Position numbers and translations under genes: made by a program. The notes beneath the pieces are model-generated. The model did no database searches, was not told where the DNA came from, and saw nothing but the letters and a program-made list of their open reading frames with translations. DNA of 5,519 nt from a virus (Duplodnaviria; Heunggongvirae; Uroviricota; Caudoviricetes), in the IMG/VR virus record IMGVR_UViG_2703718781_000016; one strand, given 5' to 3'. Position 1 is the first letter of the stretch; each line of letters opens with the position of its first letter. Positions 102-5,519 of the stretch are shown here, piece after piece.

Positions 102-701
102 TCAGAATTTATAGCCGACACCCACGATGAAGCCGTCAGTGCGCCAGTCGCCACTGCCGGAGCCTTCATAAGCAATATCAATGGCCACGGATTCGGTCGG
201 GTTAAACTGCACGCCAGCCCCCCACGCCAGAGACGTGTTGCTGTGGCGACCGTCATCACTTCCGGTCAGCACGTCGTGCGTTTTCCCCTTGTTGTCAGTT
301 ACGCGGAGATAATCCCCGGAGAAAGTCGACACACGGCTGTAAGCCACACCCGCCATCGCATACGCGCTGAACCATTCATTCACGCGCACAGACGGCCCCG
401 CCATTACGCTGAACCAGCGGTTACGAACGGAATCTTCATGCCAGCGGGTATCGCTGTAACGGGTAAGCTGGCGATTCCTGTCTCCTGCATAGCTGAATGA
501 CGTCACCATCCCCAGCGTATCCGTAAACTCATAACGGTATTTCACGTTAATCCCGTTAAGATTATCGCTACCGGGAGCGTTCGTCCGGGCATGAAGATAC
601 CCCGCGCTCAGCGTGGCCTGCTGCTCAGACGCCCATGCAGGCGCACCGGATACGGCCAGACAAATGGCTGCGGACAAAATGGCGGCATAAAGTTTACGCA
701 T
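102..701 (-). CDS. lom: Lom/Ail/PagC-family outer-membrane beta-barrel protein (lambda Lom-like)
   Basis: 199-aa ORF. The N-terminus looks like a signal peptide ([24 protein letters not shown]). The C-terminal ...[28 protein letters not shown] matches the lambda Lom C-terminus as I recall it, and internal motifs ([24 protein letters not shown]) are shared. Terminal aromatic residue F is typical of OMP barrels. RBS GAGAGG lies 5 nt upstream of the ATG. Position immediately downstream of J matches the lambda gene order. Confidence 0.9.
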
Positions 702-767: not shown

Positions 768-3700
768 TCAGCTGATACTGATACCTGCTGTGGATTTTTT
801 CATCACCACAACCAGCAGATCGCTGATACTGGTTGTTGGTGTCCAGTTATTCGCTCCTGATGAAGATACGGTGAATGTCAGTGTCAGCGTCCCCTGTCCG
901 GCAGGCATATCTATAACTGAGGAAAATACGCCCTGAACATCCGTCGTGGACTGATTAAAAATCTCCTGACCATTGCGGGTCACTCTTAACCGGCAGGTTG
1001 AATACCAGTATGACTGTTGGTTATTACTGTTGAAATTCTCATGCTTACCACCGCGGAATAACACTGGCGGTATCATGACCTGCCGGTCAAACTTCTGATC
1101 ATCACTGATTCTTACCGTGATGGTGCCACTGGCATAAGTGCTCGTGCGGGGGAAAGACTTGCTGACCGTTTTGACAATATCGCCTTCAATCTGGTTGGCT
1201 GACAGTTTCCCCTTAATCTGACAGTTCTCATTAATCGTGACGTTGTTGAGCGTCCCTGAGTTCGCATTCACACTGCCACTGATATCCGCATTTTTCGCCG
1301 TCAGTCGCCCGTCCGGCGTCAGGGAAAATGCCGGAGGATTGCCGGATGACGTGATGCTCACCGCAAACAGTCGTTTCAGGAACACGTCGTTCATGAACAG
1401 CTGATTCCCCTGCGCCACAAATAACGGCGTGCTGTTGCCGCTCTCCGGATTTATCATCGCGATACGGTCAGCCAGCAGCAGTATGTTGCTCAGTGGCTGG
1501 CCATCAGTATCCTCAATCCCTGCACCAATCCCGGCCACATAGGGTATGCCATTTTTTGTTTTCTGTACCTTCAGCATGTAAAGTGCAGCAAGGTCATCAT
1601 TTGTGTCCTTCTGCACGCGCTGTATCTGCTGTATGGTGGCGCTCTGGTCCTCCAGCGTTTTACTGACCGTCTGTGTGATTTCATTGCGGGTTTCTGTGAT
1701 GGTGGTCTGCATTTCCGCCATCTCGTCCTTCAGCTGACTGTTGTCAATCTCTGCCCACAGCGCCTCTGCCAGATGCGTTTTTCCTATCTTTTCCCGGAAA
1801 AGTTCCAGATAGCCCGCAGCATCATTGCTCGCCCGTCCACTGGCTTCCACAAAAGCAGATTTACCCACCAGGTTGACGCTGCGCACATAAAACCAGAAAT
1901 CCTTTCCGGGCTTAATGTGCGGACCGGAGACACTCCACTGACTGCCGGTCCCCAGATAACGGGCAGAGGTTTCCACCTGTGCGGCGTCTGCAATTTTTGC
2001 CTCCGAAAACCAGAACTCAAACTGCACCGTCGGGTCATAAATGGTCAGTTTCGGGACTGCCGTTATCTGAAAATAGCCCGGTGTCAGCTCAATCGTGGCG
2101 GGTACCGCAGGTGCATTAATCCTGAACGTGGTGGTGGCCGGTTCCCCCTGCTGGCCATAACTGTTAATTGCCCTGACTGTCAGGGTGTATTCCCCGAGCG
2201 GCAGACCACTGAAACGATGCTCTGTATCCGCAGTGATGGCGGTGGTCACCAGACGGCTGTCTTCTCCGCTTCCGCTGGTCAGGCGCAGACTGAAGCGCAC
2301 ACCCTTCACCACCCGCGGCGTGTCCCATTTCGCCTGTGCCAGATACTGGCCGTCAGCTGCGCTCACCTCCACCGTCAGGTGCTGCACTGCCGGAGGGATG
2401 ACGCTGTTCAGGGTGCCGCTCTGGTCGCCGTCAAAGTGCGCCCCGTTATCCACGATGGCTTCTTTCTCCGGCACATGCTGCACTGCCGTGATGGCAAAGG
2501 TACCGTCCGTGTTTTCCCGGATGGAAACACAGCGGAACAGGCGACGACGCAGTGACGGCAGGGATAGTCCCCATACACCGTATGTCTCCACACCATCAGG
2601 CAGGGTGCTGACCTGTATCCGGTCCGGCGCGGGGTGTGCGGTGATGTCCACACTCACCGGCTTACCGCTGCCGTTAATCAGGTTCACCGTGGCGGCACCG
2701 GTCTCCGGCAGTGTCACCTCACGGTCCAGCGTCAGGGTGCGGCTGGCGGCATCGATGGACAGGACACGTCCGCCGGTCATGGTCCCGGCATAGTCGTTAT
2801 CACAGATTTCAATAATGTCACCGGGTGTGTGACGCAGCCCCTGTGACCCGAGCGTGAAATCCACCGTCTGCGTTTCCAGCAGTCCGGTCTTTATCACCCA
2901 CAGCCCGGCACGGTGGGCCTGACCGCGACTGGTGCAGCCGAACGCATCCATCTTCAGCAGGTTGCGCCCGTAGCGCAGTATGGCTTCCGGGTCTTCCACC
3001 AGTTCCGTGGAGGTCTGCCAGCCGTTCTGCGGGTCGGTGTAATTCACCTCCACCGCCGTGTGGCGGTCCTTCAGGGCGCTGAAGCTGTAGCGGAACCCCA
3101 CGCCGTTATCATCCACCACCACATCGCTGTTGGTGTACGGCCACACCGCATCCGACGGGCGGTCCTGAACGAACGTCAGCGTCTGGCCGTTCCATACCGG
3201 CATACAGCGCATCGCCGAGCAGAAATCACTGAGAACGTCCCACGCCTTACGCTGTTGTGACAGGTACGCATTAAAGGTCATCCGCGGCTCTGTCCCTCCG
3301 AAGCCGTCCGGGACACGCTGGTCACAGTACTGCCCGATGGCATACAGCGCCCACTTGTCCACATCCGCGGCCCCCAGGCGTTTTCCCATGCCGTAGCGCG
3401 GGTGAGTCAGCATGTCCCACAGGCACCAGGCCGGGTTGTTGCTGTATGCCGGTTTCAGGCTGCCGTCCCAGATGCCGCTGTACGTGCGTTTTTCCGGGTC
3501 ATAGTTTGACGGTACCTGAATGATGCGACCGCGGATATGGTAGTTCACCGTCATCTGCTGACCGCCAAACTGCTCCGCATCCACCTGCAGCCCCACAATC
3601 GCCGTGTTCGGGTAGCACTGTTTCACATCGATGATTTCGGTGTATGACGACCAGAGCGTCTTATTCTGCAGCTGGTCCGTGGTGCTGTCCGCCGTCTCCC

Positions 3701-4247
3701 TGACCATCCGGATGTTAAAGGGGCGGGGAGGCAGATTCTCCAGAATCACCGACGCCAGGTACTGTGAGGTGGTCTTGCCGTTAATGGTGACATCCTTTTC
3801 CGTCACCCAGTTACCGTTACGCTGCAACTGAATCAGCAGTCGGACAGAAGAGGGATTACGGTCGCCCTTTGAGGTGGTCTCCAACAGTGACTGCACCCCG
3901 AAGGTGACCCGCAGGCGGTCAATGTTCGCGGACGTAATGGTGCGCGTCACCGGCTTTGCCTTCGTCACTTCCACGCCCAGTGCGGTTTCAGCTCCGGAGG
4001 ACTCAAAGCCTTCAGGTGGTGTCTGCTCCTGCTCCCCGGCGCGCCAGACCGCTGTCACACCATGTATCACAGGATTACCGTCCGTGTCCGTCAGCGGGGT
4101 TTTGTTCACCAGGATACTCTGCAACCCCTTCACCGAACCTTCAATCGGCCCTTCACCAATGGCGTCAATCACGCTCATCATCTGCGTGGACTTAAGATTG
4201 TCCTTTGCCTCTACCGGCGTGTGCGCCTTGCCGCCACCTTTACCCAC
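768..4247 (-). CDS. J: Tail tip host-specificity protein J (central tail fibre), lambda gpJ homolog; 1159 aa with the GTG start
   Basis: The long minus-strand ORF (768..4307 in the track). From the position aligned to the lambda J N-terminus (lambda [30 protein letters not shown]...; here [31 protein letters not shown]...), long stretches are near-identical to lambda J as I recall it (for example [55 protein letters not shown]). I place the start at the GTG at 4245-4247 because it is preceded by the Shine-Dalgarno GGAGAGGGGGA with 5-nt spacing and aligns with the lambda start. The upstream ATG at 4307 would add 20 residues translated through the heptamer repeat tract. Confidence 0.9.
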
Positions 4248-4251
4248 TCGG

Positions 4252-4262
4252 TCCCCCTCTCC
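4252..4262 (-). promoter_or_regulatory. Shine-Dalgarno / ribosome-binding site for J
   Basis: Minus-strand sequence GGAGAGGGGGA followed by ACCGA and then GTG. It is purine-rich and complementary to the 16S rRNA 3' end. Confidence 0.55.
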
Positions 4263-4290
4263 TGTCTGATGTCTGATGTCTGATGTCTGA
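4263..4290 (-). repeat. Perfect tandem heptamer repeat, (TGTCTGA)x4 on the plus strand = (TCAGACA)x4 on the coding strand, in the J 5' leader
   Basis: Read directly: four contiguous identical 7-bp units at 4263-4269, 4270-4276, 4277-4283 and 4284-4290, followed by a degenerate partial unit (atctg). The tract lies between the minus-strand terminator-like hairpin and the J RBS. Confidence 0.9.
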
Positions 4291-4305
4291 ATCTGTTTAT
4301 GCCCC

Positions 4306-4336
4306 AAAAACGACAGGCACCCCGGAGGGTGCCTGT
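4306..4336 (-). terminator. Terminator-like hairpin inside the I-J intergenic region (minus strand)
   Basis: On the minus strand: ACAGGCACCC-UCCG-GGGUGCCUGU (perfect 10-bp stem at 4313-4322/4327-4336, 4-nt loop), then CG and UUUUU (complement of 4306-4310). This is the classic intrinsic terminator architecture, on the same strand as the tail genes. Confidence 0.5.
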
Positions 4337-4470
4337 GTCATGACGGAATAAAATTTCTGAATTTCTTCACATTTTCTGTACGCCCCCGTGGCAGATATCA
4401 TTCCCGGGCGTTACAGTTTTTTCGGGCCAATAAAAACAAAACTCCCTGTGGTTAATCTTCATTTTCTGTT

Positions 4471-4502
4471 CCCGCAGCCTCCATACACTGCGGGATTTTT
4501 TT
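4471..4502 (+). terminator. Terminator-like hairpin on the plus strand (antisense to the tail operon), abutting the I stop codon
   Basis: On the plus strand: CCCGCAG-CCUCCAUACA-CUGCGGG (7-bp stem at 4471-4477/4488-4494, 10-nt loop), then A and UUUUUUU (4496-4502). On the minus strand the same hairpin follows the I stop codon but is preceded, not followed, by the homopolymer run. Confidence 0.45.
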
Positions 4503-4507
4503 ATGCT

Positions 4508-5188
4508 TTACCCCTGCCGCCCGATAACCACCACCTTCCCGTCACCGCCTTCATCACGGGTACTGATGTCCTGGGAGATTCGCCGTGAGCCAACCAGCAT
4601 TTCACCGTAAGGCACCGGCATCGGGTTCCCCTGAGCAATCATGTTATCCAGCGACGAAAAGTACGTGTTCTGTTTACCGTTATCCGTTGCCCTGTATTCC
4701 GGTGTTTTTGGCTTCGGGGCCAGCATCTGTGCCACACCACCCAGTATCATGCTGGCACCCAGTGAAAACAGCATCGTGGTGGCAGAAAAACCGCCGGCAC
4801 TCAGCGCTGCACCCCAGGCTGCCATCGATGCTCCGGCCGTGAAGAAAGAGCCCACGATGGCTGCCGCCCCCAGCACAATCTGCAGTCCGCCCTTTCCGGC
4901 TCCGGCCAGTCGCGGCACAATATGGATGACCGCCCCCTCACCCAGAGGTTCGTGAAGACGGGCGTACACCGCCTCCGGTGCCGTGTCCTCACCGCGAATA
5001 CGTATCTGGTACCAGCCTTCGTTCATCTGACGGCGGAATCCCGGCACCTGTAACGACAGCGCCCGGATGGCTTCCGCTGCCGTGTTCACGTACAGGCTGA
5101 GGCGGCGGCCAAATCGTTGCAAATCCCCGTGAAGGCAGATGCGTGCCAGTGGCGGTGACGCCAGACAGAATGCGTTCGTCGTTGCCAT
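4508..5188 (-). CDS. I: Tail assembly protein I (lambda gpI homolog)
   Basis: 226-aa ORF. Motifs ARICLHGDLQRFGRR, AVIHIVPR, the Gly/Ala-rich hydrophobic segment QIVLGAAAIVGSFFTAG...FSLGASMILGGVAQMLAPK and TDNGKQNTYFSSLDNM match lambda gpI as I recall it. The start lies 103 nt inside the 3' end of K, the same overlap as lambda K/I by my recollection of lambda coordinates. Possible RBS GAGAGG upstream. Confidence 0.9.
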   Translation of the reverse strand: MATTNAFCLASPPLARICLHGDLQRFGRRLSLYVNTAAEAIRALSLQVPGFRRQMNEGWYQIRIRGEDTAPEAVYARLHEPLGEGAVIHIVPRLAGAGKGGLQIVLGAAAIVGSFFTAGASMAAWGAALSAGGFSATTMLFSLGASMILGGVAQMLAPKPKTPEYRATDNGKQNTYFSSLDNMIAQGNPMPVPYGEMLVGSRRISQDISTRDEGGDGKVVVIGRQG

Positions 5189-5519
5189 TTTTCGGAATAC
5201 CTCTCCCGTTTACTCAGTTGTTCAGGCAGATGGTGAAGCAGTTCACCGTTGCCGCAGTAAATGGCGGCATGATTGGCCACCGATGCGCCAAAGCAGCACA
5301 GCAGGATATCGCCCGCCTGTGCAGAGGACAGGGGCACCCGGTAAAAGCCGGTGACCGCCATATTGTCCAGGTAAAGGTTCTGACCGTTGCGCCACCAGTC
5401 ATCCTCACGCTCAAAATCCGGCATATCAATTCCCGCCAGATGGTATGCATCCCGGAACAGCGTGTAACAGTCCGTCACCCCGTGCTCAAAGCGCCGTCCT
5501 GTCAGATGTGGCACACAGC
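5086..5519 (-). CDS. K: Tail assembly protein K (lambda gpK homolog), C-terminal part only; N-terminus lies beyond the window edge
   Basis: The open frame runs to the window end (the first in-window Met at 5514 is not the true start). The visible part has a Cys (VTDCYTLF) and downstream His residues (ANHAAIY, LLHHL) consistent with the NlpC/P60-type papain-like fold attributed to gpK. Placement immediately upstream of and overlapping I fits the lambda K-I-J-lom order. Confidence 0.85.
   Translation of the reverse strand, partial: CVPHLTGRRFEHGVTDCYTLFRDAYHLAGIDMPDFEREDDWWRNGQNLYLDNMAVTGFYRVPLSSAQAGDILLCCFGASVANHAAIYCGNGELLHHLPEQLSKRERYSEKWQRRTHSVWRHRHWHASAFTGICNDLAAASACT

Follow-up and report, generated by a model that had tools for sequence, protein, structure and literature searches.

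Which receptor is engaged by a lambdoid prophage whose J protein ends in a tip unlike that of lambda? The question is raised by IMG/VR virus record IMGVR_UViG_2703718781_000016, a stretch of 5,519 nucleotides (nt) analyzed here at its full length and called the window, which is the distal tail region of a lambdoid prophage, encoded on the minus strand. Its gene J encodes the central tail fiber, or tip attachment protein. A first-pass annotation, which did not state that J lies on the minus strand, proposed that the final ~150 residues of J are only loosely alignable with lambda J and that the prophage, if functional, uses a receptor other than lambda's or a variant of LamB. Our comparison with experimentally typed alleles indicates that the receptor required by this tip is very probably the trimeric porin OmpC and not LamB. 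Residue numbers follow the open reading frame (ORF) that starts at TTG; subtracting 20 gives the numbering from the GTG start favored below, and subtracting 137 gives that of the paper on phage phi330, the latter offset arising because the deposited phi330 J is split.

We took lambda J from NC_001416 as the reference for identity figures. The sequence 771..1220 comprises exactly the 150 codons that follow “...NVTINENC,” with a TGA stop codon at 768..770. In this segment (residues 1030 to 1179), 63 of 145 aligned residues match lambda J, corresponding to 43% amino acid identity and 53% nucleotide identity, compared with 65 of 79 (82%) in the segment immediately upstream (residues 951 to 1029) and 704 of 981 (72%) in everything upstream of the last 150 residues. 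The drop in identity, at about residue 1020, is not due to chance, given Fisher P values of 1e-8 (preceding block) and 6e-11 (all upstream sequence). The divergence of the C terminus noted in the first-pass annotation was thus borne out. Its description of the rest of J as near-identical to lambda was overstated: identity is 73.6% over residues 21 to 850 and 39% over residues 851 to 950, a stretch that contains a 28-residue insertion, and reaches 80 to 95% only at residues 960 to 1019.

Despite this divergence, the C terminus is assigned to the same domain family as the lambda receptor-binding domain (RBD). It matches the Pfam domain Ig_GpJ_C (E = 4e-36) and aligns at full length with the solved lambda RBD (E = 8e-65, 221 bits), with three small indels. 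The islands that had been singled out earlier are retained (VIDMPAGQG, against IVDMPAGRG in lambda), as is the hydrophobic C-terminal strand, all of which supports the proposed common fold. A single-sequence AlphaFold2 model of the last 213 residues was too poor for a fold search (mean predicted local distance difference test score, 50). The question of fold is nonetheless settled, since solved structures exist at 98% (A8, described below) and 43% (lambda) identity.

Three independent lines of evidence, the first two from published work, link RBDs almost identical to this one with OmpC. The first concerns phi330 (PV189401), a plaque-forming, long-tailed siphophage that carries Shiga toxin (Stx) 2a (Microbiol Spectr 2025, PMC12502783). 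phi330 forms no plaques on the Keio ompC deletion strain, and a chromosomal Plac-ompC copy rescues plaque formation; strains with knockouts of 53 other outer membrane proteins all stayed sensitive (PMC12502783). The last 200 residues of phi330 J differ from those of the window at a single position, V1124, which is alanine in phi330. The second is the A8 gpJ chimera, in which a natural gpJ variant contributes the C-terminal part and lambda gpJ the rest (Nature 2024, PMC11338833; bioRxiv 10.1101/2025.02.28.640725). Particles bearing A8 deliver DNA into lamB-deleted cells and require OmpC to do so (PMC11338833). A8 has also been assayed in a lamB ompC double deletion strain into which 23 ompC variants were introduced for complementation; the OmpC proteins of MG1655 and EDL933 were both recognized (PMC11338833; 10.1101/2025.02.28.640725). 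Because only the J tip was exchanged in A8, and the side fiber was replaced by a lipopolysaccharide-binding P2 chimera (PMC11338833), this OmpC dependence is not attributable to side fibers.

The third line is structural and comes from depositions under the A8 name. The PDB chain “A8 gpJ 713” (9wca and 9wcb) is identical to lambda up to “...NANSGTL” and then continues as the allele of the window (439 bits), from which its RBD differs at three positions (S1056N, T1057S, and V1124A). Entry 9wcb contains three A8 gpJ chains and three OmpC chains; a complex of a gpJ trimer with an OmpC trimer has therefore been solved. A literature search found no paper on 9wca or 9wcb. With 149 of the last 150 residues shared with phi330 and 147 of 150 shared with A8, the window RBD is 98 to 99% identical to two alleles with established OmpC dependence, and on this basis we classify it as OmpC type. 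The earlier proposal of a receptor different from that of lambda is thereby supported. It is correct but not new: the allele class, its OmpC receptor, and the structure of the complex were already published or deposited, the receptor having been in the literature since 2024-2025.

An AlphaFold3 model of phi330 J with OmpC places the hairpin E953-S962 inside the barrel and the segment A1015-P1020 on its rim, and names a further loop, T918-Y921 (PMC12502783). The equivalents of all three modeled interface loops are identical in the window and phi330. The in-barrel hairpin (residues 1090 to 1099) is also identical in A8 and in phage 21, and the rim hairpin, ANNWTP, is likewise unchanged in phage 21.

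This conservation in phage 21 is the first of several points that weigh against the assignment to OmpC. The native receptor of phage 21 (OL657228) is LamB, as reported by the Meyer laboratory, and yet its RBD matches that of the window at 122 of 150 positions with both hairpins unchanged. The hairpins alone therefore do not specify OmpC; their conservation would be necessary at best and not discriminating. Moreover, V1124 is alanine in both OmpC-verified alleles and valine in phage 21, and in a low-confidence single-sequence model, weak evidence in itself, this residue lies in an interstrand loop that strand alternation would turn toward the receptor. As phage 21 shows, receptor choice in this RBD family is mutationally labile, with few mutations sufficing. 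In addition, equating the PDB “A8 gpJ” with the published A8 chimera relies on their common name and on chimeric architectures that match, and the assignment itself is extended to the window from near-identical alleles.

These points bear most directly on the alternative that LamB serves as the receptor, either by itself or jointly with OmpC, as in the related RBD of phage 21; the allele would then be a divergent LamB binder or a dual-receptor binder and not an OmpC specialist. The two receptor uses are mutationally close, in that one substitution in phage 21 J, I1025T, located in the trimer core just before the RBD, adds OmpC to LamB use, and the 122 shared positions include both predicted contact hairpins and the valine at 1124. 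Nevertheless, we consider this alternative unlikely. Window and phage 21 differ at 28 RBD positions; at 27 of these the window sides with phi330, and at 25 also with A8 (A8 differs from the window at 1056-1057), so that a phage 21-type allele, which the window matches at only 1 of the 28 (V1124), is rejected. phi330, one residue away from the window, fails to plaque without OmpC even though LamB is present, A8 functions in lamB-deleted cells in an OmpC-dependent manner, and valine to alanine is a conservative change. A change of the I1025T type as the cause of natural OmpC use was also ruled out: the window (I1044), phi330, and A8 all keep the isoleucine. It is similarly improbable, in our estimate, that the S1056/T1057/V1124 variant differs functionally from the tested phi330 and A8 alleles, with V1124 broadening or shifting specificity, for example toward dual LamB and OmpC use or another range of OmpC variants. 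Prophages of O157:H7 and O145:H28 strains commonly carry this variant, as do Stx1a phages.

A different possibility is that the divergence has no current function, the prophage being cryptic and its J drifting or binding some other receptor. Defective lambdoid prophages are numerous in genomes of enterohemorrhagic Escherichia coli (EHEC), with up to 16 matching places per genome, and the window spans only K, I, J, and lom, too little to show whether the prophage is intact. Against this, the J frame is uninterrupted over 1,159 codons, and K, I, and lom are intact. Many O157:H7 and O145:H28 genomes, as well as five inducible-type Stx1a phage records, carry the 453-nt region that encodes the end of J (768..1220) at 100% identity, which indicates conservation and not drift, and near-identical alleles work in plaque-forming phages. 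We therefore regard a functionless tip as very improbable, and an OmpC-directed tip remains the preferred interpretation.

How widely this tip is distributed was examined in phage records and in complete E. coli genomes. A tblastn search of 50,697 phage records recovered 44 with a J C terminus at least 95% identical to that of the window. Most are Stx1a-, Stx2a-, or Stx2c-converting phages, the others including YYZ-2008, CP-1639, phi330, 2H10, and PhiR30_1; identity is 100% in five Stx1a phages. At the DNA level, the 453-nt region was found at 99% identity or more in 720 records and at 95 to 99% in 786, about 1,500 in all, of 5,426 complete E. coli genomes. A single genome holds as many as 10 such places, and O157:H7 and O145:H28 strains have exact copies. 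This J tip is one of the most frequent in E. coli.

Alleles of the J tip fall into bands of identity to the window. The phi330/A8 OmpC class, in which the window is placed by sequence, lies at 98 to 99%; phage 21, 1H12, and Lambda_ev follow at 81 to 83% (phage 21 itself at 81%), BP-4795 and 1717 at 77%, VT1-Sakai at ~60%, and the 434/WGPS6 and lambda/HK630 groups at 41 to 44%. The first-pass annotation had allowed that the C terminus might turn out to be the common lambda-type LamB-binding allele. This was ruled out, with lambda itself at 63/145 (43%) and lambda-type records at 41 to 43%. The 434-type allele, from the classic OmpC-using lambdoid phage, was likewise excluded (65/147, 44%). Two records drew attention for other reasons. 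Salmonella phage SPF_0923 (ON032529.1), whose stated host is Salmonella, bears an E. coli OmpC-type J tip at 98% identity. MW057783.1, named “Campylobacter phage CJLB-4,” matches the J tip with the same identity (41.2%), E value, and bit score as the lambda records; its genome is lambda sized (48,361 bp) and has J where lambda does, which suggests that lambda DNA was deposited under this name.

The tip appears to travel as a unit. A block just upstream of the divergence (residues 1005 to 1025) is nearly identical among the six aligned alleles (phage 21 and lambda show one to three substitutions), and the engineered junction of A8, from lambda to this allele, falls within it. This block is likely a recombination joint, through which the RBD module was probably acquired. 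In 2H10 and PhiR30_1, an exact A8-type RBD follows a fiber segment that matches lambda in the sequenced C-terminal ~200 residues, and their J coding sequences are 3,399 nt long (1,132 amino acids, the lambda length), compared with 3,480 nt in the window. J genes with this RBD thus come in a 1,159-amino-acid form (window and YYZ-2008) and a 1,132-amino-acid form of lambda length (2H10 and PhiR30_1). The occurrence of the same RBD on different J backbones indicates that it is a cassette that moves by recombination.

Farther upstream in J, the 28-residue insertion and the stretch of 39% identity to lambda lie at ~1638..1757 (residues ~851 to 890) and on to residue ~950. This part is the helical region between the second Ig domain and the straight fiber, and the two length forms of J point to residues ~851 to 950 as a second exchangeable segment. 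Tandem Repeats Finder reported weak, imperfect tandem repeats in the straight-fiber part at 1199..1241 and 1366..1400 (periods of 19 and 15, 2.3 copies each, scores of 47 to 56), which are probably due to chance or to the repetitive nature of fiber sequence.

The identity of J itself was assessed over its full length. The ORF matches all six Pfam domains of lambda J above their cutoffs (FNIII-A_GpJ, Phage-tail_3, Ig_J, Ig_J_second, Phage_Tail_Tip, and Ig_GpJ_C) and aligns end to end with the solved lambda J (8iyk; 1,730 bits). It is a member of the lambda-type J family by every defining feature tested. Lambda Met1 pairs with residue 21 of the ORF, encoded by a GTG codon at 4247 and preceded by GGAGAGGGGG, and RefSeq annotates a gpJ of 3,480 nt (1,159 amino acids) at the matching position in the closest genome. 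On the basis of these observations, the true start is most likely this GTG rather than the TTG at 4307. Coordinates of the features are collected in Table 1.

TABLE 1 Features of the window that are relevant to gene J and its receptor-binding tip
Feature	Coordinates	Strand	Basis or remark
Last 150 J codons plus stop (residues 1030-1179): ~15 residues of distal straight fiber and RBD; assigned to an OmpC-type allele	768..1220	-	
Ig-like C-terminal RBD, Ig_GpJ_C (PF12421), residues 1056-1179	771..1142	-	E = 4e-36; profile positions 16-135 of 135
Predicted rim hairpin ANNWTP (phi330 A1015-P1020)	837..854	-	AlphaFold3 model (PMC12502783) and alignment
Codon V1124	936..938	-	A in phi330 and A8, V in phage 21; aligned with lambda A1076
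Predicted in-barrel hairpin, residues 1090-1099 (phi330 E953-S962)	1011..1040	-	AlphaFold3 model (PMC12502783) and alignment
Codons S1056-T1057, in short loop TSTY (phi330 T918-Y921)	1137..1142	-	N-S in A8, 2H10, and PhiR30_1
I1044-V1045 in GDIVK, trimer core, equivalent to phage 21 I1025/V1026	1173..1178	-	Ancestral Ile kept
Conserved block, residues 1005-1025, just upstream of divergence	1233..1295	-	Six-allele alignment
J (central tail fiber/tip attachment protein)	768..4247	-	1,159 amino acids from GTG at 4247; six J Pfam domains
J mechanical ORF, TTG start	768..4307	-	Program-made ORF
lom (Ail/Lom outer membrane protein)	102..701	-	PF06316, E = 1e-117; immediately 3' of J as in lambda
Tail assembly protein I	4508..5188	-	ORF and Pfam domain match
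K-like C40/NlpC-P60 peptidase	5086..5514	-	Pfam domain match; cut at window end

The genes in the window are arranged in the order K-I-J-lom, followed in the closest genome by a tail fiber gene after lom, which matches the order in lambda. Over its full length, the window shares 98.4% identity with a prophage in an O103:H2 strain, in which type III secretion system effector genes follow the tail fiber genes. The prophage is a lambdoid one of the kind carried by EHEC.

The gap between I and J (4248..4507, minus strand) is 260 nt long, compared with 60 nt in lambda; it is also present in phi330 and is unannotated in RefSeq. It contains a hairpin directly after the I stop codon, a 31-codon ORF (MKINHREFCFYWPEKTVTPGNDICHGGVQKM), a strong 10-pair stem that resembles a terminator (4336..4313), with CGTTTTT after it, and four perfect tandem copies of the 7-nt unit CAGACAT (4263..4290) that abut the J ribosome-binding site on its upstream side. 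The RNA fold z-score of the gap is -2.7. Rfam, searched with the full window at E <= 0.1, gave no match in the gap. Its sole match was ST7-AS1_2, a eukaryotic long noncoding RNA family with no structure, at 133..237 (plus strand) inside lom; its score, 24.8 bits, lies below the gathering score of 50, and the match is due to chance. Among published small RNAs (sRNAs), svsR, AgvB, and PasB were considered for the insert, which could not be matched to any of them on the basis of the published texts. A 2026 preprint describes PasB as an sRNA embedded in the phage structural operon of lambdoid prophages. The gap is a candidate for the PasB locus.

If the tip acts as its typed relatives do, infection might proceed as follows. 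The three RBDs at the tip of the J fiber would use their distal loops to dock on the three barrels of an OmpC trimer, the hairpin at residues 1090 to 1099 reaching into the pore and the ANNWTP hairpin lying on the rim. In lambda, binding to LamB rearranges the RBD and the straight fiber, which in turn causes the tail tip to open and the DNA to be ejected (PMC11101478). By analogy, binding to OmpC would rearrange the same parts, the tail tip would open, and the DNA would be ejected.

The range of cells open to a lambdoid phage is set by its J tip, and the long-tailed Stx-converting phages are no exception. An OmpC-type tip predicts which E. coli can be lysogenized, and it predicts resistance from loss of or variation in ompC and none from shutting off the maltose regulon. 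Lambda-based particles for DNA delivery in the gut are already being retargeted with the same module. As regards annotation, near-identity to a typed allele allows a J tip to be assigned to a receptor class; that 80% identity does not suffice is illustrated by phage 21. A 2026 preprint on receptor prediction covers Drexlerviridae-type GpJ and not lambdoid J tips.

Among known systems, phi330 is the closest to the window. The two J proteins agree at 149 of the last 150 residues and share the same backbone with its fiber insertion, and the phages have the same 260-nt I-J insert and the same lom downstream; phi330 differs in carrying alanine at 1124. Unlike that of the window, the deposited phi330 J is divided into two coding sequences, a “hypothetical protein” and a 1,042-amino-acid “tail fiber protein” (PV189401, 1607..5022), by a frameshift near codon ~115. 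Since phi330 forms plaques, this frameshift probably reflects an error of sequencing or of assembly, the genome being Sanger assembled. The A8 chimera, with 2H10 and PhiR30_1 as natural equivalents, shares 147 of 150 RBD residues and an identical junction block with the window but has N1056, S1057, and A1124, with lambda sequence upstream of the junction. The window differs from this lambda-derived fiber at six of the last 55 fiber residues and is about 74% identical to it further up. Phage 21 J belongs to the same allele family, with identical hairpins and valine at 1124; its 28 substitutions in 150 residues are clustered at 1049 to 1079, 1106 to 1126, and 1138 to 1150. The lambda RBD (8xcj, 8xck, and 8iyk) shares the Pfam domain, the length class, the position at the tip of a trimeric fiber, the DMPAG motif, and the C-terminal strand but is 43% identical, is set apart by three small indels, and binds LamB. 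Finally, phage 434 J (OL657226) is of the same domain family, and 434 uses OmpC; at 44% identity and with a longer first loop, it represents a separate allele class that also reaches OmpC.

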